In this document: piece by piece, positions 34,943 to 47,899 of the stretch
Layout of the letters: each line of letters starts with the position of its first letter
Numbering within the stretch: position 1 is the first letter of the stretch
From: Candidatus Eiseniibacteriota bacterium
GTDB taxonomy: Bacteria > Eisenbacteria > RBG-16-71-46 > CAZAMP01
Length of the DNA stretch: 64,000 nt
Assembly (NCBI GenBank): GCA_965224245.1
Contig: OZ245046.1
Coordinates: 1,440,001 to 1,504,000, forward strand
Direction of reading: 5' to 3'
Made by a program: the position numbers and the translations under genes
The notes under the pieces: generated by a model
The model's input: only the letters and a program-made list of their open reading frames with translations
Database searches by the model: none
What the model was told of the DNA's origin: nothing

Positions 34943-34972
34943 TTGACCCTCGCTCCTGGGGGGCCGTATACT
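34943..34972 (+). promoter_or_regulatory. Sigma70-like promoter of uvrA
   Basis: TTGACC-N18-TATACT. Confidence 0.55.
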
Positions 34973-35041
34973 CGTCCGACCGGCATCTCATCCGACAGCG
35001 CTTCGTTTCCACCATCCCCGGCGCGAGCGAACGAACCGATC

Positions 35042-37918
35042 ATGGACGAAATCACCATTCGAGGTGCGCGCGAGCACAACCTCCAGGACATCTCCGTGCG
35101 CATTCCGCGCAACCGTCTCACCGTCATCACCGGCGTCTCGGGCTCCGGAAAGTCGTCGCTGGCCTTCGACACGATCTACGCCGAGGGACAGCGGCGCTAC
35201 GTCGAGTCCCTCTCGGCGTACGCACGGCAGTTCCTGGGCCGCATGCAGAAGCCCGACGTGGACCGGATCACGGGCCTCAGTCCGGCCATCGCGATCGAAC
35301 AGCGTACGACGTCACGCAATCCGCGCTCGACGGTGGCCACCACCACCGAGATCTACGACTACCTCCGCGTGCTCTACGCGCGCGCCGGGCGCCAGCACTG
35401 TCATCGTTGCGGACATCGCATCGGGGGACAGACGGTGGTGCAGATGGTCGATCGCCTGCTCGAGCTTCCCGGCGGCACGCGCCTGACGATCCACGCGCCG
35501 ATCGTGCGCGGGCGCAAGGGCGAGTACCGGAAGGAGCTCGACGCGCTCCGGCGGCAGGGCTACGTCCGGGTGCGGATCGACGGCGACGTGCACGAGCTGG
35601 ACGAGGACATCGCGCTGGACAAGCGCAAGCGCCACACGATCGAGGCCGTCATCGATCGCATCAAGGTCGAGCCCCGCTCGCGCACGCGCCTTCACGAGTC
35701 CATGGAAGCGGCGCTCCACCTCGCCGACGGGCTGGCCAGCGTCGACGCGACCGGTGGCAAGGGCGGTCCGATCCGGACGCTGGAGTTCAGCGACAAGGCC
35801 GTGTGCACCAGCTGCGGCATCTCGTTCCCGCCGCTCGATCCGCGGAACTTCTCGTTCAACTCGCCCTACGGCGCGTGTCCCGATTGCGAGGGGCTGGGCA
35901 TGACGCGCACCGTGGATCCGGCCCTCGCCGTGAACGCGGACCTGAGCCTTCGCGAGGGCGCGCTCTCGGGGTGGAAGAACCTCGAGGGGTGGTCGGGCAA
36001 CGTGCTCCAGGCGGTGGCCGAGGCCTACGACATCGATCTGGACCGCCCATTCAAGAAGCTCACCAAGCGCGCGCGACGCGTGCTCCTGGAGGGCACCGGC
36101 GAGAAGGAAGTCTCGGTCAAGATCACCCGGAAGAAGGGCAAGATCGAGTGGCGTACGCGGTTTCCCGGCGTGATCCCGGCGCTGATGAAGCGCTATCGCG
36201 AGACGTCGAGCGATCACGTGCGGGGGAAGATCGACGAGCTGATGACCGAGCAGCCGTGTCCGGCGTGCGAGGGGAGTCGCCTGCGTCCCGAGTCGGCCGC
36301 GGTGCGGGTCGGGGACCACCGCATCCACGAGATCGTGGCGCTCGACGTCGGACATGCCGTGGCCGTGGTGGACGGGCTCGAGCTGAGCGAGCGCGAGGCC
36401 GAGATCGCCGCACCGATCGTCAAGGAGATCCGCTCGCGCCTGTGCTTCCTCGCCGACGTGGGGCTCGACTACCTCACCCTGGATCGTGCGTCGGGCACCC
36501 TGTCGGGGGGCGAGGCGCAGCGCATCCGGCTGGCCACGCAGATCGGCTCGCAGCTGACGGGCGTCCTCTACGTGCTCGACGAGCCGTCGATCGGTCTCCA
36601 CCACCGCGACAACGCGAAGCTCCTGTCCACGCTCCAGCACCTCCGGGATCTCGGGAACACGGTCCTCGTGGTCGAGCACGACGAGGAGACGATGCGCGAA
36701 GCCGACTACGTGATCGACCTCGGTCCCGGCGCCGGGCGACACGGTGGCTGCGTGGTGGCCGCGGGCACGCCGGCCGAGGTCACGGCCACCGAGGCGAGCC
36801 TCACCGGACGGTATCTCGCCGGTCAGGATCAGATCCCGGTGCCGCCGGCGCGCCGCCCCGGCAGCGGCGAGGCGCTGGTCGTGCACGGGGCGTCGGCCAA
36901 CAACCTCCGCGATCTGGACGTGACGTTTCCGCTGGGGACCTTCACCTGCGTCACCGGCGTCTCGGGATCGGGGAAGAGCACGCTCGTGCGCCAGGTGCTC
37001 TACCACACGCTCGCGCGGCAGCTCCACCGGGCCAAGCTCACCCCGGGCGGCCACCGGCGGATCGCGGGGCTCGAGCACGTGGACAAGGTCATCGAGATCG
37101 ACCAGAGCCCGATCGGCCGGACGCCGCGCTCCAACCCGGCCACGTACACCGGTGCGTTCGGGCACGTTCGCGATCTCTTCGCGCAGCTCCCCGAGTCGCG
37201 CGTACGGGGCTACAAGCCGGGGCGCTTCTCGTTCAACGTGACCGGGGGGCGCTGCGAGGCGTGCCTGGGCGACGGCGTGGTCAAGATCGAGATGCACTTC
37301 CTGCCCGACGTGTACGTGAAGTGCGATGCCTGCGGGGGCCGGCGCTATCATCGCGAGACGCTCGAGGTGACCTATCGCGGCAAGTCCATCGCCGACGTGC
37401 TCGACTTGACGGTGGAGGAGGCGCTGGAGTTCCTCGACGCGATCCCGGCGCTCAAGCGCAAGCTCGGTGTGCTGAACGACGTCGGGCTCGGCTACATCCA
37501 CCTGGGTCAGCCGGCCACGACGCTCTCGGGCGGTGAGGCGCAGCGCGTGAAGCTGGCCACCGAGCTCTCACGGGTGGCAACCGGGCGGACGGTCTACATC
37601 CTCGACGAGCCCACGACGGGACTCCACTTCCACGACATCCGGATCCTCCTGGACGTGCTCCAGTCGCTCGTGGATCGCGGCAACACGGTGATCGTCATCG
37701 AGCATCAGCTCGACGTCATCAAGTGCGCCGATCACGTGATCGACCTCGGACCGGACGGCGGGGAGCGCGGGGGCACGGTCGTGGCCGCGGGGACCCCCGA
37801 GCAGGTGGCCGGCGTCCGCGCGTCGTACACGGGACAGGCGCTGTCGGTGGCGCTGGGGATGCGGCGCCGAGCGGGCCGGAGGCGCGCCTCCGATCAGCTG
37901 GGATCGGCGGCCGGCTGA
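35042..37918 (+). CDS. uvrA: Excinuclease ABC subunit A
   Basis: [32 protein letters not shown], two LSGGEAQR signatures, Zn fingers. Confidence 0.98.
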
Positions 37919-38165
37919 TCGCCGTGCCTCGACGTCCGGCGCGGGAAGTTCGTCCCACGAAACGGGTTCGGACCGCACCCACCGGTTCGCGCGACCTTGA
38001 CGGGCCTCCGGAAATGGGGGATCCTTCGCGTTCGCGTTTCGCACGCGCGCCGTCACGTAACTCTCTGAATCCGTGGAACATTGCGCGTACCCCCGCGGCG
38101 ACCCGGGCCCTCGCGGACCCCGGCCCGCGCCGAGTGCGCCCACCCGCGCGGGAGCGCCACCGGAC

Positions 38166-39287
38166 ATGTCCGCCGATCCCAACCCTCCGGGCGACACCGC
38201 ACGCCGGACGCCGGTTCACGACCGCTACGCCGACCACGGCGCGCGTCTGACGGAGTTCGCCGGCTGGACGATGCCCGTTCAGTTCGAGGGGGTCATGGCC
38301 GAGCACCGCGCCGTGCGGACGCGCGCCGGACTGTTCGACGTCAGCCACATGGCCCGGTTCGACGTGGGCGGACCCGGCGCCGAGGCGTTCCTCGATGGTC
38401 TCCTGACCAACGATCCGCGAAAGCTCGCCCCCGGGGCGCTCTTCTACACCGCGCTGTGCCAGGAGGACGGGGGCACGATCGACGATCTCGTCGTGTACCG
38501 TCTCGCCGATCGATTCCTCGTCGTGGCCAACGCCGCGAACCACGATGCGGTGTGGAGCTGGTTCACCCGGCACGCCGGCGACGGCGTCGTCCTGACCGAT
38601 CGGACCCATGCGATCGCGCAGCTCGCGCTCCAGGGGCCTCGAAGCCAGTCCGTCCTGGGCCGTGTGCTCGCCGCCGATCTCGACGCGATCGGCTACTACC
38701 AATGGGCCGAGGTCAGCTTCAAGGGGCGGCCGATGCTGATCTCCCGGAACGGCTACACCGGGGAGGACGGCTTCGAGCTGTACCCGGTGCGCGACGATGC
38801 GGGGGATCTGTGGCGGGCCCTGTTCGAGGCCGGTGGCGACGAGCTGTCACCGGTCGGTCTGGGCGCCCGCGATACGTTGCGCCTCGAGGTCGGCTTCGCG
38901 CTCTACGGCCACGAGCTCTCGCGCGAGACGACGCCGGTCGAGGGCGGCATCGGCTGGGTGGTGAAGACGAAGGAGCGCACCTTCGTCGGTCACGAGCGGC
39001 TGCGGGCGCAGAAGAAGAAGGACGGGCTCTCCCGGGGCCTCGTGGGCCTGGAGTTCGAGGGCCGGCTGATCGGCCGCCAGGGCGCGCGCGTGATGCGCGA
39101 CGGACGAGACGTCGGCGAGGTCACGAGCGGCACGTTCGGGCCCTCGGTGGAGAAAGGCATCGCGCTGGCGATCCTCGACACGGCGGCATCCGACGCCGGC
39201 ACCGCGGTCGAGGTGGACGTGCGGGGGCGCGCGGTCCGGGCGACGATCACGACGCTGCCGTTCTACACGGAGGGATCACATCGTTGA
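38166..39287 (+). CDS. gcvT: Glycine cleavage system aminomethyltransferase T
   Basis: FAGWTMP, GLFDVSHM, GYTGEDGFE, GLGARDTLRLE. Confidence 0.95.
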   Translation: MSADPNPPGDTARRTPVHDRYADHGARLTEFAGWTMPVQFEGVMAEHRAVRTRAGLFDVSHMARFDVGGPGAEAFLDGLLTNDPRKLAPGALFYTALCQEDGGTIDDLVVYRLADRFLVVANAANHDAVWSWFTRHAGDGVVLTDRTHAIAQLALQGPRSQSVLGRVLAADLDAIGYYQWAEVSFKGRPMLISRNGYTGEDGFELYPVRDDAGDLWRALFEAGGDELSPVGLGARDTLRLEVGFALYGHELSRETTPVEGGIGWVVKTKERTFVGHERLRAQKKKDGLSRGLVGLEFEGRLIGRQGARVMRDGRDVGEVTSGTFGPSVEKGIALAILDTAASDAGTAVEVDVRGRAVRATITTLPFYTEGSHR

Positions 39288-39395
39288 CACGCGACGTCGT
39301 CTCACGACCGTGGCCGCGGTCACACGGGGGCGAGGTCGCTCGATGATCTGTGGATGGGTCGGGCCCGGCGCGGCTGCCGACCGGAGGGGGTTCTC

Positions 39396-39779
39396 GTGAG
39401 CGAGATCCGTGACGATCTCCGATACACGTCCGAGCACGAGTGGGTTCGCCTCGACGGCGACGAGGCCGTCGTCGGGATCACGGACTACGCACAGGGCGAG
39501 CTCGGAGACATGGTCTACATCGAGCTTCCGGAGGTCGGAAGCACGATCACGTACATGGAGGCGTTCGGGACCGTCGAGGCGGTCAAGGCCGCCAGCGATC
39601 TGTACGCGCCCGTCACCGGCGAGGTCGTCGACGTGAACACGGCATTGGCCGAGGATCCGGCGCTCGTGAACTCGTCTCCGTACGAGGAGGGCTGGTTCGT
39701 GCGCGTCAGGATCACCGACAGCTCGAAGCTGGACGACCTGCTGGCGGCCGACGCCTACAAGGAATCCATCGGCGAGTGA
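39396..39779 (+). CDS. gcvH: Glycine cleavage system H protein
   Basis: YTSEHEW, GITDYAQGELGD, VEAVKAAS (lipoyl Lys), NSSPYEEGW. Confidence 0.95.
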   Translation: MSEIRDDLRYTSEHEWVRLDGDEAVVGITDYAQGELGDMVYIELPEVGSTITYMEAFGTVEAVKAASDLYAPVTGEVVDVNTALAEDPALVNSSPYEEGWFVRVRITDSSKLDDLLAADAYKESIGE

Positions 39780-40342
39780 CCGACCCGAACCACGATGCGA
39801 CGCGGGCGGCCATCTCGGACGGCCCGGCGGCCGGCCCGGACACGGCGGTCGAGTGGCAGGCGTGGCCGCTCCGCGAGCGACCGGTCGCCGGCGGGGTGGC
39901 GTTCGTCGTGATCGTGGGCTCGGGAGTCGCGGTGGTCGCGATCGGCGGTCACGTGCTCTTCGGATTGATCGCGGTGGCGGTGCTGTTCGGGTCGTTGAAC
40001 CCGTTCTTCTCGCCGACGCGGTTTCGCCTGGACGAGGACGGCGTTCGCGTCGAGCGGTGGCCGGTCACGAAGGTCCGCGCCTGGCACGAGATCCGTGCCT
40101 GCTACGTCGACGCCCGCGGCGCGACGCTGAGCCCGTTCGTGGGGCGGCCGTGGCTCGAGCCGTATCGCGCGATCCGGCTGCTGTTCGCCGGACACGACGC
40201 GGCCGGCGGTGGCACGGGCGGGTCTCGCGAGCAGGTGGTGGCGTTCATCGGGTCGCATTGGGAGGGAGAGATCACGCGTGTGGGAGTGGCTTCTGGGGCG
40301 GCGACCGAGCCCGGATCGGAGCCCCGGACACCCGCCGGTTGA
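39776..40342 (+). CDS. Two-TM protein with PH-like C-terminal domain, unknown function
   Basis: GTG overlaps the gcvH stop; WQAWPLRERP, two TMs, PFFSPTRFRLDEDGV...RAWHEI. Confidence 0.65.
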   Translation: MTDPNHDATRAAISDGPAAGPDTAVEWQAWPLRERPVAGGVAFVVIVGSGVAVVAIGGHVLFGLIAVAVLFGSLNPFFSPTRFRLDEDGVRVERWPVTKVRAWHEIRACYVDARGATLSPFVGRPWLEPYRAIRLLFAGHDAAGGGTGGSREQVVAFIGSHWEGEITRVGVASGAATEPGSEPRTPAG

Positions 40343-40733
40343 CGGCGAGTCCACGTCGTCGGGCTCGCCCGACGGCGCGTCGTCGGACGCGCTCGACGAG
40401 ACGACCGACGAGGAGCTCCTGGAGCGCGTGGCCCGGGCAATCGTACTGCGCCGGATGGGCATGCCGGCGATACTCTTTCTGGAGAGCTCGAAGCCGCTCA
40501 GCTTCATCGGTAGCCAGTTCATGGTGTTCATGGAGCCGTTCGTGAAGACGTTCTTCACGGTGCGGAGCTACGAGCGGTTCGCGGAGATGATGGAGGACCG
40601 TGACAACTACGAGCGCCTGATCACGAAGATCGAGGCGCACGAGGCGGCGCGCGTTCGCGAGGAGAAGGCCGGAAAGGCCGCGCGGACGGGCGGAGGCGGT
40701 TCACGGTCACGTGATGAAGAAGGCGGGACGTGA
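40278..40733 (+). CDS. Conserved hypothetical protein
   Basis: LLERVARAIVLRRMGMPAILFLESSKPLSFIGSQF; typical codon usage; stop overlaps the next start. Start uncertain (GTG after GGAGGGAG). Confidence 0.7.
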   Translation: MWEWLLGRRPSPDRSPGHPPVDGESTSSGSPDGASSDALDETTDEELLERVARAIVLRRMGMPAILFLESSKPLSFIGSQFMVFMEPFVKTFFTVRSYERFAEMMEDRDNYERLITKIEAHEAARVREEKAGKAARTGGGGSRSRDEEGGT

Positions 40734-42583
40734 TGGCAAACCGGAACATCGATCCGTCGTCGATCCGATCGGTGCTCGCCACCGACTGCGGAAGTACGAC
40801 CACCAAGGCCATTCTGATCGAGCGCGTCGACGGCGAGTATCGTCAGACGGTTCGAGGCGAGGCGCCGACCACGGTGGAAGCGCCGTTCGAGGACGTGACC
40901 CGTGGCGTCCTGAACGCGATCAAGGAGCTCGAGGAGCTGGCGGGTCGGAGGTTCCTGGACGGCGAGACGATCATCACGCCGCAGAACGGCGACGAGGGCG
41001 TGGATCTGTACCTCTCCACGTCCTCGGCGGGCGGCGGTCTGCAGATGATGGTCACCGGCGTGGTGAAGGCCATGACCGGCGAGAGCGCCGAGCGAGCCGC
41101 ACTCGGAGCCGGCGCGATCGTCATGGACACGGTCGCGTCCAACGACGGGCGTCTGCCGCACGAGAAGATCCGCCTGATCCGAAACCTCCGTCCCGACATG
41201 ATCCTGCTCTCCGGCGGGGTGGACGGCGGCACCAAGACCCACGTCGTCGAGCTGGCGCAGCTCATCGGCGCCGCGGCCCCCAAGGCCCGCCTGGGCGCCG
41301 GCTACGAGCTTCCGGTCATCTTCGCCGGCAACCAGGACGCGCGCGGGGACGTCGAGGAGGAGCTGGGCGACAAGACCGCGCTCTCGGTCGTCGACAACAT
41401 CCGGCCCACGATGGAGCTCGAGAACCTGATGCCGGCGCGCCACGCGATCCATGACCTGTTCATGGAGCACGTGATGGCGCATGCGCCGGGCTACAAGACG
41501 CTCATGAGCTGGACCGACGCGCCCATCATGCCGACGCCGGCCGCCGTGGGCTCGATCATCCAGAAGGTGGCCGAGCAGCGTGACATCTCGGTGATCGGCG
41601 TCGACATCGGCGGGGCCACCACCGACGTGTTCAGCGTGTTCCAGGACACGTTCAACCGCACCGTGAGCGCGAACCTCGGCATGAGCTACTCGATCTCCAA
41701 CGTGCTCGCCGAGGCCGGGATCGACAACGTGATCCGATGGGTCCCCATCGACGACGTGGATGAGGCCGAGCTCCGGAACCGGATCAAGAACAAGATGATC
41801 CGCCCCACGACGATCCCGCAGGCCCTGAGCGAGCTCATGATCGAGCAGGCGATCGCGCGCGAGGCGCTCCGCCTGGCGTTCGAGCAGCACAAGAACCTCG
41901 CGGTGGGGCTGAAGGGCGTTCAGCAGGAGCGCACGATCTCCGACACGTTCGAGCAGTCGTCCACCGGCGCCACGCTGATCAACCTCCTGGATCTGGACCT
42001 GCTCGTCGGCTCGGGAGGCGTGCTCTCGCACGCGCCGCGGCGCCGGCAGTCGGCGGCGATGTTGCTGGATGCGTTCCTCCCCGAGGGCTTCACCACGCTG
42101 GCGGTGGACTCGATCTTCATGATGCCCCAGCTCGGCGTGCTGGCGCCGATTCACGGCGAAGCGGCCACGCAGGTGTTCGAGCGGGACTGCCTGATCATCC
42201 TGGGACCGAGCGTGGCGCCGATCGGCAACGCCAAGCCGGGCGAGAAGGTCATGGACGTCACGCTGGACGTGGAGGGGGGCGAGGCCATCCGCGAGACGAT
42301 CACCCACGGCCAGCTGAAGCTGATCCCGTTCGGGCTCGAGCAGTCCGGTCGGCTCACGGTCGAGCCCACCAAGAAGTTCGACATGGGCGCCGGGCGTGGC
42401 AAGCCCGCCAGTCGTCTGGTCAAGGGCGGCGTCGTCGGACTGATCCTCGACGGTCGCGGGCGCCGCCCGTTCACGATCCCGACCGCGCCCGCCGACCGCA
42501 TCGGCAAGCTCCAGGAGTGGTACGCGGCGCTCGATCTCTACCCGGCTCGCGACGCGGTCGCGGCCCAAGCGGCGCACGCGTAG
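40730..42583 (+). CDS. GlmL/MutL (glutamate mutase L-like) ASKHA-fold ATPase
   Basis: DCGSTTTK (phosphate 1), SSAGGGL, PDMILLSGGVDGG, MPTPAAV, DIGGATTDVFS (phosphate 2), RTV..NLGM, GSGGVL. Confidence 0.85.
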   Translation: MMANRNIDPSSIRSVLATDCGSTTTKAILIERVDGEYRQTVRGEAPTTVEAPFEDVTRGVLNAIKELEELAGRRFLDGETIITPQNGDEGVDLYLSTSSAGGGLQMMVTGVVKAMTGESAERAALGAGAIVMDTVASNDGRLPHEKIRLIRNLRPDMILLSGGVDGGTKTHVVELAQLIGAAAPKARLGAGYELPVIFAGNQDARGDVEEELGDKTALSVVDNIRPTMELENLMPARHAIHDLFMEHVMAHAPGYKTLMSWTDAPIMPTPAAVGSIIQKVAEQRDISVIGVDIGGATTDVFSVFQDTFNRTVSANLGMSYSISNVLAEAGIDNVIRWVPIDDVDEAELRNRIKNKMIRPTTIPQALSELMIEQAIAREALRLAFEQHKNLAVGLKGVQQERTISDTFEQSSTGATLINLLDLDLLVGSGGVLSHAPRRRQSAAMLLDAFLPEGFTTLAVDSIFMMPQLGVLAPIHGEAATQVFERDCLIILGPSVAPIGNAKPGEKVMDVTLDVEGGEAIRETITHGQLKLIPFGLEQSGRLTVEPTKKFDMGAGRGKPASRLVKGGVVGLILDGRGRRPFTIPTAPADRIGKLQEWYAALDLYPARDAVAAQAAHA

Positions 42584-42592
42584 GAGGGACCC

Positions 42593-43717
42593 ATGGCCAA
42601 CGTCTTCACCCCCGCGCTCAAGGTCACCCGGCGCACGCACGTCGCACGTGACCGGCGGCTTCCGCTGAAGGGAACCGTCGTCGTGGGCAACGGCGACCGC
42701 GTGAAGGCCGATCAGGTCGTCGCGCGCACCGAGCTCCCCGGCAACGTGCACATGGTCAACATCGCCGGCCTCCTGAACGTGCACCAGTCCGACGTGCCGT
42801 CGTTCATGCTGAAGGCCGTGGGCGACCCGGTCGAGAAGGACGAGAACATCGCGATGTCCAAGGGGCTCTTCGGCCTGTTCAAGAGCTACTGCAAGGCGCC
42901 GATCTCGGGAACGATCGAGTCGGTCTCCAACGTCACCGGCCAGGCGGTCTTGCGTGAGCCGCCGATGCCGGTCGAGGTGAACGCGTACGTCGACGGCGTG
43001 GTGACCGAGGTGATCCCCGACGAGGGCGTGGTCGTGGAGTGCGACGGTGCGTTCCTCCAGGGCATCTTCGGCATCGGGGGCGAGGTGCACGGAGCGATCG
43101 AGATCGTGGCGTCCTCGCCCGGTGAGGAGGTGTCGACCGATCAGATCACGCCCGCGATGGCCGGGAAGATCCTGGTCGTGGGCCGTCTGGCGTCGGTGGC
43201 GCTGCTCGAGCGCGCGGCCGAGGTGGGCGTGAGCGCCATCGTGGCCGGCGGCATCAACGCGCAGGACCTGAAGGAGTTCCTCGGATACGACCTGGGCGTG
43301 GCGATCACGGGCTCGGAGGAGAAGGGCATCACGCTGGTCACCACCGAGGGCTTCGGGCCGCTGGCCATCGCCGACAAGACGTTCGCGCTCCTGTCCGAGA
43401 ACGCCGGCCGGCCGGCCGCCGCCAACGGGGCCACCCAGATTCGTGCCGGCGTGATGCGTCCCGAGATCATCATCCCCGACAGCGCGGGCGAGGAGGTTCC
43501 CCGCACGTCGCAGCAGGGGGCCGGCATCGTCGTCGGGAGCCCGATCCGGATCATCCGGGCCCCCTACTTCGGTCAGCTGGCCGAGGTGACCGAGCTACCT
43601 CCCAAGCTGGAGAAGATGGAGAGCGAGACCCTGGTGCGCGTGCTGCGGGCGCGCATCGAGTCCGGTGAGACGGTGACTGTGCCGCGCGCCAACGTCGAGA
43701 TGATCGAGGAACGCTGA
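42593..43717 (+). CDS. Hypothetical protein with barrel-sandwich-hybrid repeats and C-terminal KOW/SH3-like domain
   Basis: GDRVKADQVVA, GDPVEKDENIA...KAPISGTI, AYVDGVV; TEGFG; GSPIRIIRAPYFGQLAEV. Confidence 0.7.
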   Translation: MANVFTPALKVTRRTHVARDRRLPLKGTVVVGNGDRVKADQVVARTELPGNVHMVNIAGLLNVHQSDVPSFMLKAVGDPVEKDENIAMSKGLFGLFKSYCKAPISGTIESVSNVTGQAVLREPPMPVEVNAYVDGVVTEVIPDEGVVVECDGAFLQGIFGIGGEVHGAIEIVASSPGEEVSTDQITPAMAGKILVVGRLASVALLERAAEVGVSAIVAGGINAQDLKEFLGYDLGVAITGSEEKGITLVTTEGFGPLAIADKTFALLSENAGRPAAANGATQIRAGVMRPEIIIPDSAGEEVPRTSQQGAGIVVGSPIRIIRAPYFGQLAEVTELPPKLEKMESETLVRVLRARIESGETVTVPRANVEMIEER

Positions 43718-43724
43718 GGGGCCC

Positions 43725-44510
43725 GTGGAGCCGAACACGTCGCCGTTCAACCCCGACCGCCTGAACGTCCTTCTGATCCTGGGCGTGTTCTTCGCCCTGG
43801 TGTTCGGGTACATCGCGCGTGCGGGCCGCGTGCGGCTGTTCCTGCGCAAGATCGCCGGGCTCGACGCGATCGAGGAGGCGGTGGGGCGCGCCACCGAGAT
43901 GGGCCGCTCGGTGCTCTACGTGCCGGGCATCGACGACGTGAACAACATCCAGACCATCTACTCGATGGTCATCCTCGGGCACGTGGCCCGCACGGTCGCC
44001 CAGTACGAGACGAAGCTGATCGTGCCCCTGGCGAAGGCGTTCGTGGTGCCGCTGGCTGAGGAGACGGTCCGCGCCAGCTACATGGACGCCGGCCGACCCG
44101 AGCTGTTCAATCCCGACGACATCCGCTACCTGTCCGACGAGCAGTTCGCGTTCACCGCCGGAGTGGACGGCATCATGCTGCGCGAGAAGCCCGCGGCCAA
44201 CCTGTACCTCGGGTCGTTCTTCGCCGAGAGCCTCGTCCTGGCCGAGACGGGCTTCTCCACCGGAGCGGTCCAGATCGCCGGCACGGCGAACATCCACCAG
44301 CTTCCATTCTTCGTGGTCGCCTGTGACTACACGCTCATCGGCGAGGAGTTCTTCGCGGCCACGGCGTATCTCTCTCGCGATCCGAAGGTCGTCGGCACGA
44401 TCAAGGGAACCGACGTGATGAAGCTCCTGATCATCGCCGCGATCGTGATCGGGGTCGTCCTGTCCACCGCGGGCAACACGAGCTTCGCCGCCTGGTTCCA
44501 GGTGCGCTAG
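43725..44510 (+). CDS. Membrane-anchored conserved protein (resembles DUF6754)
   Basis: RKIAGLDAIEEAVGRATEMGR, YLSDEQFAF, QLPFFVVACDYTLIGEEFFAA; N- and C-terminal TMs. Family name recalled, not searched. Confidence 0.7.
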   Translation: MEPNTSPFNPDRLNVLLILGVFFALVFGYIARAGRVRLFLRKIAGLDAIEEAVGRATEMGRSVLYVPGIDDVNNIQTIYSMVILGHVARTVAQYETKLIVPLAKAFVVPLAEETVRASYMDAGRPELFNPDDIRYLSDEQFAFTAGVDGIMLREKPAANLYLGSFFAESLVLAETGFSTGAVQIAGTANIHQLPFFVVACDYTLIGEEFFAATAYLSRDPKVVGTIKGTDVMKLLIIAAIVIGVVLSTAGNTSFAAWFQVR

Positions 44511-44519
44511 GGAGGACGC

Positions 44520-45158
44520 GTGCGCAAGGAAGTGCCGCTGTTCATCACGTTCCTGTTCGGCGCGTTCATGATCCTCGACTTCTTCGTGCCGCACCATCGC
44601 GTGACCATGATCGGCGAGATGTTCAAGCAGTGGACGGTCATCATCACCGCGTTCGCGTTCGTTCTCGGGGTGGCCAACCTGGCACGCATCAACCTCCACA
44701 AGCTGACCCGCCAGGGTAGCGACCGCTTCTACGCCGGTGTGCTCCTGTTCGGTCTGTTCGGCATGCTGGGCGCGGGGCTCATCGGCGGCATCGAGAGCGG
44801 CTCGTTCGCGTACGACCTCTTCGAGTACGTGTTCACGCCGATGCAGGCCACGATGTTCAGCCTGCTGGCGTTCTTCATCGCGTCGGCGGCGTTCCGCGCG
44901 TTTCGCGTCCGGAGCCTCGACGCGGGCCTGCTGGCCCTGACCGCGCTCCTGGTGATGATCGGGCGCGTGCCGGTGGGCGATCTCATCTCCGACCGCCTGC
45001 CGGAGTCCTGGCCGTCGATCTCGGCCGCGCAGGGCTGGATCATGAACGTGCCCAACCTGGCCGCGAAGCGGGCCATCCTGATCGGCGCCGCGCTCGGCGC
45101 GATCAGCACCGGGCTCAAGATCATCGTCGGCGTCGAGCGCAACTACCTGGGAGAGTGA
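44520..45158 (+). CDS. Polytopic membrane protein, unknown function
   Basis: About six TMs; PMQATMFSLLAFFIASAAFRAFR; RBS GGAGG. Confidence 0.75.
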   Translation: MRKEVPLFITFLFGAFMILDFFVPHHRVTMIGEMFKQWTVIITAFAFVLGVANLARINLHKLTRQGSDRFYAGVLLFGLFGMLGAGLIGGIESGSFAYDLFEYVFTPMQATMFSLLAFFIASAAFRAFRVRSLDAGLLALTALLVMIGRVPVGDLISDRLPESWPSISAAQGWIMNVPNLAAKRAILIGAALGAISTGLKIIVGVERNYLGE

Positions 45159-45997
45159 CGGTGGGTGTCGTCGATCGCATGCTGCGGCTGGATCGCCGGT
45201 GGATCTTCGCGGCGATGTGGCTCGCCGTGTCCATTCCGCTCTGGACGAAGCTCGAGATCGGCGTGCGTCCGTCGCCCGAGGTGAGGGCGTTCCACGAGGC
45301 GATCGAGCGTCTCCCCGAGGGGAGCGTGATCTACCTGGCCGCCGACCTCGATCCGGGCTCCCAGGCCGAGCTGGATCCGATGCTGCGGGTCGCAGTCGCG
45401 CACGCGTGCCGCAAGAACCTGAAGGTCATCGGGGCCGCTCTGTGGCCGGCCGCGCCGCCGATCCTGGAGCGGGCGTTCAACGAGATCGCGGTCGGCGAGT
45501 TCGGCAAGGAGTACGGACGGGACTTCGTGAACCTCGGGTTCAAGGAGGGTCGCGAGGCGGTCATGGTCATGGTGGCCGAGGACATCCGGGCCGCCTACCC
45601 GGCCGACTACTACCGCACGCCGCTGGATCAGATTCCGCTGATGGCCGACATCCGGGGCTTCGGAGACGTGGCGCTCCTGGTCAACATCTCGGCCGGCTAT
45701 CCGGGCACGAAGGAGTGGGTGCAGCAGGTGCAGGGCCGCTTCTCGGTCGACATGGTGTCGGGCTGCACGGCGGTCAGCGCGCCCGAGTACTACCCGTACG
45801 TTCAGGCGGGCCAGCTCGACGGGCTCCTGGGCGGGCTGGCCGGGGCGGCGGAGTACGAGACGCTGGCCGATCGGCTGGGTGAGGCGGCGCGCGGCATGAA
45901 CGCGCAGTCGCTCGGACACCTGGCGGTGGTGCTGTTCATCCTCGTGGGGAACGTGCTGCACGTACTCGGGCGACGTCGCGAGAAGGCGGTGGGCTGA
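45155..45997 (+). CDS. Membrane protein with extracytoplasmic alpha/beta domain, unknown function
   Basis: N- and C-terminal TMs; YGRDFVNLG, YPYVQAGQLDGLLGGLAGAAEYE. Confidence 0.75.
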   Translation: MTVGVVDRMLRLDRRWIFAAMWLAVSIPLWTKLEIGVRPSPEVRAFHEAIERLPEGSVIYLAADLDPGSQAELDPMLRVAVAHACRKNLKVIGAALWPAAPPILERAFNEIAVGEFGKEYGRDFVNLGFKEGREAVMVMVAEDIRAAYPADYYRTPLDQIPLMADIRGFGDVALLVNISAGYPGTKEWVQQVQGRFSVDMVSGCTAVSAPEYYPYVQAGQLDGLLGGLAGAAEYETLADRLGEAARGMNAQSLGHLAVVLFILVGNVLHVLGRRREKAVG

Positions 45998-46674
45998 TGG
46001 ACGTGACCACCACGACCGCGATCTGGACCACGATCGCCGGGCTGTTGACGCTGGCGATCTTCTCGTTCCTGTATCGCGACAACCCGGTCTACAAGTTCGC
46101 GGAGTATCTGTTCGTGGGCGTGGCGGCGGGGTGGTTCCTGTGCCAGCAGTTCTACACCGTCTTCCTGCCCAGCCTCTGGACGCCCTGGACCGAGGGGCTC
46201 GGGAGCCTCGGCGGGGGAGACGGCTCGCTCAGCGGGCTCTGGCTCACGTTCCCGTTCGTGCTCGGCATCTTCATGTTCACGCGTTTCGTCCCGCGCGTCT
46301 CGTGGCTCAGCCGTTGGCCGATGGCGCTGATGGTGGGTGCGTTCTCGGGGCTGGCCATCATCGGCTTCGCGCAGGGCGATCTCGTCACGCAGATCCAGGC
46401 CAGCATGGTCGATCTCGGCACCGGAGGGGCGGGAACGGTCATCTCCGAGGTGCTGCTCCTGATCGGGCTCCTGACCACGCTCGTCTACTTCTTCTTCTCC
46501 ACCGAGCACAGGGGCGCGATGGGGGCGATGTCGCGGGTCGGGATCGCCTTCCTGATGATCTCGTTCGGAGCGTCGTACGGCTTCACCGTCATGGCTCGCA
46601 TCTCGCTTCTGATCGGTCGACTGCTGTTCCTGTACGAGCGCTGGCCGGAATCGATCAGGGCGCTTCTGTCCTGA
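45997..46674 (+). CDS. Polytopic membrane protein, unknown function
   Basis: FSFLYRDNPVYKFAEYLFVG, LVYFFFS, MISFGASYGFTVMAR; about six TMs. Confidence 0.75.
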   Translation: MDVTTTTAIWTTIAGLLTLAIFSFLYRDNPVYKFAEYLFVGVAAGWFLCQQFYTVFLPSLWTPWTEGLGSLGGGDGSLSGLWLTFPFVLGIFMFTRFVPRVSWLSRWPMALMVGAFSGLAIIGFAQGDLVTQIQASMVDLGTGGAGTVISEVLLLIGLLTTLVYFFFSTEHRGAMGAMSRVGIAFLMISFGASYGFTVMARISLLIGRLLFLYERWPESIRALLS

Positions 46675-46825
46675 TCCGATGGTGAGGCCGATCACCCCCG
46701 ACGCCGATCATTCCGTCGAGGACCGGCGGAACCTCACGCATCGCCCGCGCGTTTCACGGCGTAGCACGGCCGCACGGCCGCACGGCGGGGTCGGCAGGGA
46801 GAGGATTCGAGCATGGAGAGACGCC

Positions 46826-47899
46826 TTGCCGATCGATGAGCTGACCTGGGACGGAGCCCCTCACGAGCCGCACGAGTTTCCCGAGCAATCCGCCGCCGAG
46901 CGACGCCGAGACCGCATGAAGGCGTGGCTCGCCCATCAGCCGCTGGTCCACCGGCTCCTCGACGTGGCGCTGGTGGGCGCGCTGCCCGGCATCGGGGCCT
47001 ACGCCCGCTTCTTCGCGCCGCACACGCTCGAGATCACCGAGCACATGGTGCCGGTGGTGGACCTGCCGCACGAGCTGGATGGTCTCAGGATCGCGCACCT
47101 GACCGACCTGCACGCCGGTCGCACGGTCCCCATCGACTTCCTGGCCCGCTGCATGGACGTGGTCGCCTCGTGCCGACCCGACGTGATCGCCGTCACCGGC
47201 GACTTCCTCCAGTGGGATGCCGGCTACGTCGACGTCGTGGCGGACGTCGTCGGCCGCCTCGACGCGCCGCTCGGCGTGTTCGCGGTGCTGGGCAATCACG
47301 ACTACGGCCTGAACAGCCCGCAGGGAATCCGGTTTCTCGACCACGCCACGGCACGCCTGGTATCCGCACTCGAGGGCCGCGGCGTGCGCGTGCTCCGGAA
47401 CGCGTTCGAGACCGTGCGGGTCGGCGCGAGCGCGCTCCACGTGGTCGGCGTCGAGGACCTGTGGAGCGGGGAGTGCGATGCGCAGGGGGCGTTCGCCCAG
47501 GTGCCCGACGAGGGGACGCGACTGTTCCTCTGCCACAATCCGGACGGCTACGGCTACCGAGATCGCCACCGCTTCGAGCTGATGCTCTCCGGTCACACGC
47601 ACGGGGCACAGGTTCGCGTGCCCGGCTCGCCGAGGGCCCTTCTGCCGGTGCGCGACACGCGACTCCTGGCGGGCTACTACGGCCGGCGCGGCGGGTGGGT
47701 GTACGTGAACCGGGGACTCGGCTACATCTGGCGCGTGCGACTGAACTCCGCGCCCGAGATCGCCTGTCACACGCTTCGCCGCGAGCTCGGTCCGGGGGAC
47801 CGGCCCGTCAGCTACCGGCGCCACCGCGAGCGCTGGCGAGGTGGACGACTCGATCGGCGGCCGATCCGACCGGGCACGAGCCCGGCCGCGCTGGCGTAG
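46826..47899 (+). CDS. Calcineurin-like metallophosphoesterase (YkuE/YaeI-like)
   Basis: DLH, GDF, GNHD, HNP, GHTHG, VNRGLG. Start uncertain (46679, 46826 or 46916). Confidence 0.85.
   Translation: MPIDELTWDGAPHEPHEFPEQSAAERRRDRMKAWLAHQPLVHRLLDVALVGALPGIGAYARFFAPHTLEITEHMVPVVDLPHELDGLRIAHLTDLHAGRTVPIDFLARCMDVVASCRPDVIAVTGDFLQWDAGYVDVVADVVGRLDAPLGVFAVLGNHDYGLNSPQGIRFLDHATARLVSALEGRGVRVLRNAFETVRVGASALHVVGVEDLWSGECDAQGAFAQVPDEGTRLFLCHNPDGYGYRDRHRFELMLSGHTHGAQVRVPGSPRALLPVRDTRLLAGYYGRRGGWVYVNRGLGYIWRVRLNSAPEIACHTLRRELGPGDRPVSYRRHRERWRGGRLDRRPIRPGTSPAALA

Follow-up and report, generated by a model that had tools for sequence, protein, structure and literature searches.

Why would an ATPase related to GlmL, the helper of a coenzyme B12-dependent mutase, be encoded among a group of membrane proteins? 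This question is raised by an eight-gene locus (39776-46674, + strand) in a 64-kb stretch of bacterial DNA, hereafter the window (G000:C1:1440001-1504000; gene coordinates are positions within it). The source genome is 6.94 Mb long, has ~70% G+C and is 97% complete, and the nearest named relatives of the window are Eisenbacteria. The genes, which we labelled g1-g8 for this analysis, comprise an ATPase unit centred on g3 and g4 and a membrane module, g5-g8. Genomes that have one of these units generally have the other, usually next to it, and their gene order and co-occurrence suggest that the ATPase is coupled to the membrane proteins. Our favoured reading, held with a confidence that stops somewhat short of an even chance, is that the locus encodes an ATP-driven membrane translocator of an undescribed type, powered by an ASKHA (actin/Hsp70-fold) ATPase. 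The eight genes are as follows (aa, amino acids; TM, transmembrane; ORF, open reading frame):

g1, 39776..40342, + strand: 188-aa protein with a single long hydrophobic stretch (residues 35-80) and a soluble C-terminal part
g2, 40278..40733, + strand: small conserved protein of ~100-150 aa; start uncertain, ORF opens at 40209
g3, 40730..42583, + strand: 617-aa predicted ASKHA-fold ATPase of the Pfam MutL family (GlmL-like)
g4, 42593..43717, + strand: 374-aa constant partner of g3, with three predicted domains
g5, 43725..44510, + strand: DUF6754 protein, predicted as TM helix, cytoplasmic Rossmann-like domain, TM helix
g6, 44520..45158, + strand: 212-aa polytopic membrane protein with about six hydrophobic segments
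g7, 45155..45997, + strand: 280-aa protein with a TM helix at either end and a ~220-aa domain predicted outside the cytoplasm
g8, 45997..46674, + strand: 225-aa polytopic membrane protein with about six hydrophobic segments

The ATPase g3 and its distance from GlmL

g3, present as a single copy in the genome, matched the Pfam MutL family (PF13941) along the entire profile (positions 1-450 of 450; E 9.3e-124, 414.1 bits, above the gathering score). An alignment of 38 sequences contained 172 invariant columns, and the motifs DxGSTTTK, GGATT and GSGGxLSH were invariant among all 38 relatives (D19-G21-S22-T23-T24-T25-K26, G294-G295-A296-T297-T298 and G427-G429-G430-S433-H434); we take these residues to be the phosphate-1, phosphate-2 and adenosine motifs of ASKHA ATPases. 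Judged by its sequence, g3 binds nucleotides through an ASKHA fold whose ATP-binding motifs are all intact, and it is under very strong constraint. Weak Hydantoinase_A matches were also recorded, and no solved structure matched g3 by sequence at E<=0.01.

While sharing the Pfam family, the ASKHA fold and the ATP-binding motifs with GlmL/MutL and Or-4 proteins, g3 differs from them in several respects. It measures 617 aa, as against 455-490 aa for mutase-linked GlmL proteins, which lack its conserved C-terminal extension of ~130 aa. Its score against the GlmL model NF040745 was 223.1 bits, below the cut-off of 475 (true members in a Bacillota-type phylum reached 475-698 bits), and it likewise fell below the cut-offs of the Or-4 model NF040744 (203.8 bits, cut-off 600) and of TIGR01319 (162 bits, cut-off 204). 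Identity to true GlmL was 27-31% over ~460 residues, as opposed to 51-80% to orthologues of other phyla. We then compared g3 with reference GlmL genes taken from a 301-genome sample of the Bacillota-type phylum, in a 54-row tree (quick IQ-TREE, LG+G4). The mutase side comprised 13 GlmL and 4 Or-4-like rows; the other side comprised the window g3 together with 27 orthologues drawn from a wide range of phyla, 6 paralogues from Bacillota and 3 class paralogues of a second type. A branch of ~1.95 changes per site with full support (100 in the SH-aLRT, an approximate likelihood-ratio test) parted the 37 g3-type rows from the 17 mutase-linked rows, with the warning that long branches meet at this very GlmL/g3 split.

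Gene neighbourhoods gave the same picture. A B12-binding gene (glmS) and glmE adjoined GlmL in 12/12 checked high-scoring loci, and in the middle-scoring, Or-4-like class the gene followed ornithine aminomutase in 3/3 loci; the window has neither arrangement. In the loci examined g3 was never beside a B12 enzyme and always occurred with g4, which is absent from GlmL loci. Neither a B12-binding domain (PF02310) nor the mutase E family (PF06368) was detected in the window. Genome-wide, PF06368 was not found, nor was the aminomutase family PF09043, although this second blank is weak, as no control genome gave a PF09043 match either. The genome does hold 12 PF02310 matches, all outside the window and the nearest ~290 kb away. 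These matches and the MutL membership itself are what would favour g3 being a true GlmL, the helper or reactivase of a B12-dependent mutase encoded elsewhere; given the scores, the tree, the neighbourhoods and the missing mutase families, that explanation is already contradicted and we give it next to no credence. In our assessment g3 is not a glutamate mutase helper but an orphan GlmL relative without a mutase, as the initial annotation had proposed. That annotation would have been overturned had g3 grouped with mutase-linked GlmL, had the genome encoded a cognate mutase, or had the gene order proved unconserved, and we found none of these. Since databases call such proteins 'glutamate mutase L', the name can mislead metabolic reconstructions of uncultured lineages.

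Two units: conservation, copies and parts

Among 41 genomes of the class, MutL (PF13941) and DUF6754 (PF20539) were both present in the same 38 and both absent from the same 3. MutL lay at most 6 kb upstream of DUF6754, and co-directional with it, in 27 of the 38 carriers, and in two further genomes the pair was close by, with 9.4 kb between the genes in G018 and opposite strands in G005. The other nine, mostly fragmented assemblies, showed no linkage: the genes were on different contigs in eight, and 27 kb apart on a single contig in G014. The order g1-g2-g3-g4, a spacing of 0.05 to 8 kb, then g5-g6-g7-g8 was kept in 19/20 loci from 20 class genomes, the exception (L023) having its module inverted. 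Similar agreement was seen in the Bacillota-type phylum, where DUF6754 occurred in 26 and the g4 family in 25 of the 301 genomes, with both in 24 (27 carriers). As related genomes are not independent, these counts overstate the statistical weight of the co-occurrence.

The system extends well beyond the class. A g4 profile found at least 584 relatives in one-genome-per-species contigs, and the g4 family comprises ~1087 clusters (50% identity) at E<=1e-30; DUF6754 loci number roughly 1500 or more. The best 80 of the relatives, which served as our cross-phylum loci, were ~50-56% identical to g4, except for the same-family L025 at 71%. Their records name Eisenbacteria, Latescibacterota, Fermentibacteria, WOR-3, Stahlbacteria, Edwardsbacteria, Poribacteria, Cloacimonadota, Zixibacteria, Fidelibacterota, Muiribacteriota, Hydrothermota, Lentisphaeria, Synergistia, Bacillota and Bathyarchaeia, which bears out the suggestion in the initial annotation that similar clusters exist in candidate phyla and some archaea. 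Database names of long DUF6754 proteins also point to carriers in Myxococcota and Planctomycetota. Of the 67 loci whose upstream flank reached at least 2.2 kb, 48 had g3 directly upstream of g4, so that gene order is conserved across phyla as well as within the class; the other 19 were mostly from Poribacteria and WOR-3/Stahlbacteria. On Poribacteria chromosomes g3 and g4 were apart in 4/4 cases, and in the one searched for DUF6754 too (G041), DUF6754 was at a third place. The membrane module was present in 25 of 43 well-flanked loci, downstream in 21 and upstream in 4, its side relative to g2-g3-g4 depending on the phylum (L037, L060, L077, L089, L098). Median identity to the window across phyla was 65% for g3, 53% for g4 and 55% for g5, compared with values of 61% (UvrA) and 44% (GcvT) at these loci; g3 is therefore about as conserved as UvrA, pointing to strong constraint.

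When we searched the whole genome with all eight window proteins using tblastn, g1-g4 were found once and g5-g6-g7-g8, in the same order, four times. No ATPase lies beside the three extra modules:

L002, G000:C1:1296836-1299876: preceded by ftsZ and a TPR (tetratricopeptide repeat) protein
L003, 3817348-3820361, minus strand: preceded by a TMEM260-like GT-C glycosyltransferase with TPR repeats
L004, 5032105-5035090: preceded by a 538-aa protein of no family

Identity among these paralogues was 48-57% for g5, 37-45% for g6, 34-38% for g7 and 43-46% for g8, making g7 the most divergent subunit. Elsewhere a genome carries 1 to 10 modules, some in tandem arrays; several genomes of 1.9-3.8 Mb hold at least 8 DUF6754 copies (tandem spacing ~3.3 kb), and one 2.5-Mb Bathyarchaeia genome holds 10. 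With 8-10 copies in some small genomes, the function must matter to these organisms. None of 14 control model organisms has DUF6754, which explains why the system is unstudied.

In many lineages a single polypeptide carries both g3 and g4, which argues that they act as one unit. Within the size range searched (656-2000 aa) we found at least 50 clusters of 974-1022 aa, some with up to 223 member sequences, that combine PF13941 with 99% of g4 at 43-52% identity. A second fused type (~17 clusters, ~800-1060 aa) matched ~65% of g4 at 30-37% identity. Thus the genes and order of the proposed eight-gene unit stood, although the locus is better described as two separable units, g2-g3-g4 (with the less conserved g1) and g5-g8.

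The structural model of g4 (mean pLDDT, a per-residue confidence score, of 85.6) suggests three domains. Residues ~49-123 form a predicted barrel-sandwich hybrid, nearest to RnfC/NqrA N-domains, the biotin carboxyl carrier protein BCCP and HlyD (Z ~7.2-7.8, VIA). By sequence, only a weak RnfC_N match was obtained in Pfam (E 4.6e-4, below the cut-off). Residues ~152-299 form a putative swivelling beta/beta/alpha domain, resembling the His domain of phosphotransferase system (PTS) enzyme I (2wqd; Z 9.3, root mean square deviation (rmsd) 2.8, 108 residues) and also RraA (Z 8.9), rifampin phosphotransferase (8.8), the pyruvate kinase C-domain (7.9) and the aconitase X small subunit (7.8). The third, residues 311-374, resembles a KOW/SH3-like barrel (Z ~8 to KOW domains). 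Z values not far from these are common between unrelated folds, so we read them as folds and not as family membership; the g4 profile, compared with solved structures by sequence, gave chance-level rows only. Two carrier roles were considered and rejected. No His is found among the 94 invariant columns of 21 sequences, and K90 (in 'AMSKG', its hairpin position being inferred), the sole candidate carrier Lys, is replaced by Arg in several of the 21 rows; therefore g4 is probably neither a phosphohistidine carrier, despite its swivel fold, nor a biotinyl or lipoyl carrier.

The two remaining members of this unit are less distinctive. The hydrophobic stretch of g1 (residues 35-80 by hydropathy) was read as two TM helices; g1 had no Pfam family at E<=0.01 and is the least conserved member (28/80 cross-phylum loci, median identity 33%). 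g2, without a family match, adjoins g3 in 45/80 loci at a median identity of 43%, and lies between g4 and g5 in L092, L097 and L100.

Turning to the membrane module, g5, its most conserved subunit, matched PF20539 (DUF6754) at E 2.4e-110 (368.2 bits, profile 4-256 of 257, above the gathering score). Hydropathy gave two hydrophobic segments, and the model (pLDDT 82.4) places a Rossmann-like domain between two TM helices. Over 39 sequences, the mean Lys+Arg count was 3.9 after the first helix and 1.1 before it, suggesting that the domain is cytoplasmic. A fold search with g5 returned generic Rossmann-like matches only (best Z 10.3, 123 chains at Z>=8). The DUF6754 proteins of many relatives carry, N-terminally, a signal peptide with an Fn3-like ectodomain or a PQQ-like beta-propeller, the latter in many of the best 120 long DUF6754 homologues; the window g5 is without an ectodomain. 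For g7, a single-sequence scan passed only the C-terminal segment, and the N-terminal one emerged when the whole alignment of 39 rows was scanned (mean hydropathy 2.49). Lys+Arg counts in these 39 sequences (2.9 before the first TM helix, 2.5 in the five residues after the second) suggest that the domain in between lies outside. No Pfam family was shared among the 39 g7 relatives even at E<=1, and in the Atlas g7 matched 'hypothetical protein' clusters only.

As for the polytopic subunits, g6 had neither a family match nor a named Atlas match, yet followed g5 in all 20 class loci (as two partial matches in L023) and in all four copies here. g8, also without a family match, closes the module in every copy. 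Profile comparisons of g6 with g8 and of g5 with g7 gave no homology, and the g5 and g7 profiles, compared with solved structures by sequence, gave chance-level rows only. Judging from order and predicted topology, g5-g8 is a fixed four-gene module that exposes one soluble domain to the cytoplasm and one to the outside. None of the eight proteins matched an ABC_tran or permease family. We found no solved structure, named family or paper that explains the system, subscription journals being outside the literature search.

A possible ASKHA-powered membrane machine

How might the two units work together? In the translocator that we tentatively favour, g3-g4 would sit at the cytoplasmic face, docking most plausibly on the Rossmann-like domain of g5, the sole large cytoplasmic domain of the module. 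A complex prediction for g5 with g4 scored 0.00 against a mark of 0.32 and gave no verdict. There g3-g4 would hydrolyse ATP, with the swivelling domain of g4 driving conformational cycles of a g5/g6/g7/g8 complex that move a substrate across the cytoplasmic membrane. The outward domain of g7, and in relatives also the Fn3 or beta-propeller ectodomain of g5, may bind the substrate or a partner outside. One g3-g4 pair would serve four paralogous modules here, like the shared energising units of other transporter classes. We prefer translocation because of the many paralogous modules, the fastest divergence being in the outward-facing g7, and the architecture of the module. With less assurance still, we suggest that the system may represent a new class of primary-active machine, in which an ASKHA motor with a swivel partner serves several four-subunit modules, in dozens of bacterial phyla, most of them uncultured, and in Bathyarchaeia. 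The ATP-driven membrane transport and force systems known to us all use P-loop ATPases (ABC, AAA+, rotary) or P-type ATPases. If our reading is true, a membrane machine driven by an ASKHA ATPase would represent a new principle, and possibly a fourth kind of motor.

Known systems offer partial parallels. DdrA/PduG and EutA are ASKHA ATPases that spend ATP on opening a partner protein, and DdrA combines the ATPase with a swivelling domain. This likeness suggests that g3-g4 may work by ATP-driven opening of a partner, although g3-g4 has no B12 enzyme partner and its swivelling domain is on g4 alongside the barrel-sandwich and KOW-like domains. The best 50 structural matches of g4 contained no DdrA chain, a result that does not bear on the likeness either way. 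Group II ECF transporters and some ABC importers share one energising unit among modules, as one ATPase unit faces four paralogous modules here, and one subunit of the module is predicted to face outward; these systems differ in that no P-loop ATPase or subunit homology is found here and in that ATPase pairs are also multiplied in the Bacillota-type phylum. PilM with PilN/O, FtsA, and MreB with RodZ are membrane-attached actin-fold proteins, in which a cytoplasmic ASKHA protein works with bitopic partners. g3, however, belongs to the GlmL/hydantoinase branch and not to the actin/FtsA branch, and the partners are unrelated.

Several observations weigh against a translocator. To our knowledge, no ASKHA ATPase energises a transporter. 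Among the best 120 long DUF6754 proteins, none joined a membrane subunit to g3 or g4. Clues to a substrate were also missing: the window and the loci of 37 relatives gave 0 Rfam matches at gathering thresholds, and of 11 lysine riboswitches (RF00168) found in five DUF6754-rich genomes none adjoined a DUF6754 gene. The neighbours of orphan modules are heterogeneous, and g3-g4 pairs are themselves multiplied in the Bacillota-type phylum, so that one motor for many modules is not general. Finally, the variable ectodomains of g5 would suit a machine that works on macromolecules of the envelope no less well than a transporter of small molecules.

This last point leads to an alternative that we consider unlikely but worth weighing, namely force transmission without transport, in which the ATPase pair would switch or position extracytoplasmic proteins during envelope or surface assembly, in the manner of FtsEX. 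Consistent with such a role, the ectodomains of relatives (Fn3-like, PQQ-like beta-propeller) are of protein-binding types, orphan modules of the class follow genes for TPR proteins, TMEM260-like GT-C glycosyltransferases, FtsZ, sugar nucleotidyltransferases and secreted beta-helix proteins with Por_Secre_tail, and in L024 a polysaccharide deacetylase, a TPR protein and a GT2 glycosyltransferase stand between g4 and g5. Yet no single neighbour recurs among the 20 orphan modules of the class, the system is also found in Bathyarchaeia and Bacillota, whose envelopes differ widely, and in the Bacillota-type chromosome G334 the neighbours are peptidases and central metabolism (C26 and M20 peptidases, aminotransferase, serine dehydratase) and not envelope genes. 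About equally improbable, in our estimate, is that g3-g4 is no bound motor but a soluble ATP-dependent enzyme or chaperone acting on whatever compound or protein the module handles, for example by metabolic trapping after uptake. The kinship of g3 to the hydantoinase/oxoprolinase branch and to helpers of cofactor exchange in B12 enzymes would suit an enzyme of this kind, as would the 19/67 loci in which g4 has no adjoining g3, the 18/43 well-flanked loci without a module and the three modules of this genome that lack an ATPase beside them. It is harder to square with g4 having no invariant His, modifiable Lys or enzyme-family match, with the very tight genome-level co-occurrence with DUF6754, and with the lack of any recurring catalytic partner nearby.

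Could the two units simply be independent, and neighbours by inherited gene order only? In several phyla gcvT-gcvH(-gcvPA-gcvPB) and uvrA are kept upstream without an obvious functional link, and synteny in these lineages can thus be inherited. However, the module stands on either side of g2-g3-g4 in different phyla, so the link survived rearrangement, and the presence and absence of the units match in two distant groups; we therefore regard independence as quite improbable. More doubtful still is a redox-driven ion pump of the Rnf/Nqr type with g4 as its RnfC/NqrA-like peripheral subunit. The fold of g4 residues ~49-123 is shared with the RnfC/NqrA N-domain (Z 7.5-7.8, rmsd 1.5-2.5, 59-64 residues), in keeping with the weak RnfC_N match, and g6 and g8 are presumably similar in size to NqrD/E. 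Nevertheless, this barrel-sandwich match is at a level common among unrelated folds, g4 has no Fe-S, FMN or NADH-binding domain, g5-g8 match no Pfam Rnf/Nqr subunit, and nothing else of RnfC/NqrA, nor any other Rnf/Nqr subunit, is present here.

Gene layout, neighbours and divergent loci

On the + strand, g1-g8 follow uvrA (34943-37918), gcvT and gcvH in an unbroken run that continues into a metallophosphoesterase gene and dusB. Reading the junctions from the sequence upheld the description of eight co-oriented, tightly packed genes, all with coding-type G+C at third codon positions (0.83-0.95). The stop of gcvH and the start of g1 overlap by 4 nt, as do g2/g3 (GTGA) and g6/g7, and g7/g8 overlap by 1 nt; the gaps are 9 nt at g3/g4, 7 nt at g4/g5, 9 nt at g5/g6 and 4 nt between g8 and the next gene. 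A candidate start of g2, GTG at 40278, is preceded by a AGGGAGAG box; with this start, g2 and g1 would have 65 nt in common. The gene descriptions in the initial annotation were likewise sound (g3 a full-length MutL protein, g5 a DUF6754 protein, g4 with a weak RnfC_N-type barrel-sandwich, hydrophobic segments in g1 and g5-g8). As tight spacing runs on upstream (gcvT-gcvH) and downstream (metallophosphoesterase), the eight genes do not mark an operon boundary, and a search for promoters and terminators gave none exceeding shuffled expectation.

Directly 5' of g1 lie gcvT-gcvH (38073-39779, +), with no gcvPA or gcvPB between gcvH and g1. In relatives, gcvPA and gcvPB are placed at this point, which indicates that a glycine-cleavage operon precedes the system in Eisenbacteria-like and Fermentibacteria records; since uvrA is likewise conserved upstream, the gcv linkage may be inherited gene order. 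Downstream, a gene for a 406-aa YaeI/LpxG-like metallophosphoesterase (46679-47899, +) starts 4 nt past the g8 stop, which makes co-transcription probable. Among the class loci, only that of the same-family genome (L017/L025) has this gene after the module; the other 18 do not.

Some loci departed from the common arrangement. In G334 (L138, L139, L140, L141) each of four MutL-type genes is accompanied by a g4-like gene (373-460 aa); the gene order takes two forms, and in two of the four an extra ~285-aa protein lies in between. Three class genomes (G001, G006 and G013; L156, L157, L158) carry the second fused type, a MutL plus g4-like protein of ~880-920 aa, away from any DUF6754 module and in one case with a TPR protein upstream; the window genome is without this type. 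The MutL gene is split over several frames at G012:C1:1511905-1513299 and G032:C3:209250-210668, as is the membrane module at L084:11698-13982, by pseudogene formation or long-read assembly error. An apparent g4-g5 fusion in L019 was rejected, because a stop closes g4 and g5 is read in a different frame, and a single truncated 707-aa g4-DUF6754 protein (P0007) is possibly a gene-calling artefact and was given little weight.

A few neighbours deserve mention in their own right. One Poribacteria locus has peptide-binding proteins upstream of g4; neither these nor the gcv genes or the peptidase and metabolic neighbours in G334 recur with any consistency. The insertion between g4 and g5 in L024 (6722-14299, genome G018) consists of the deacetylase (1139 aa), the TPR protein and the GT2 glycosyltransferase. 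A TMEM260-like GT-C/TPR gene, like that preceding L003, is also found beside a module in genome G001 (L169).

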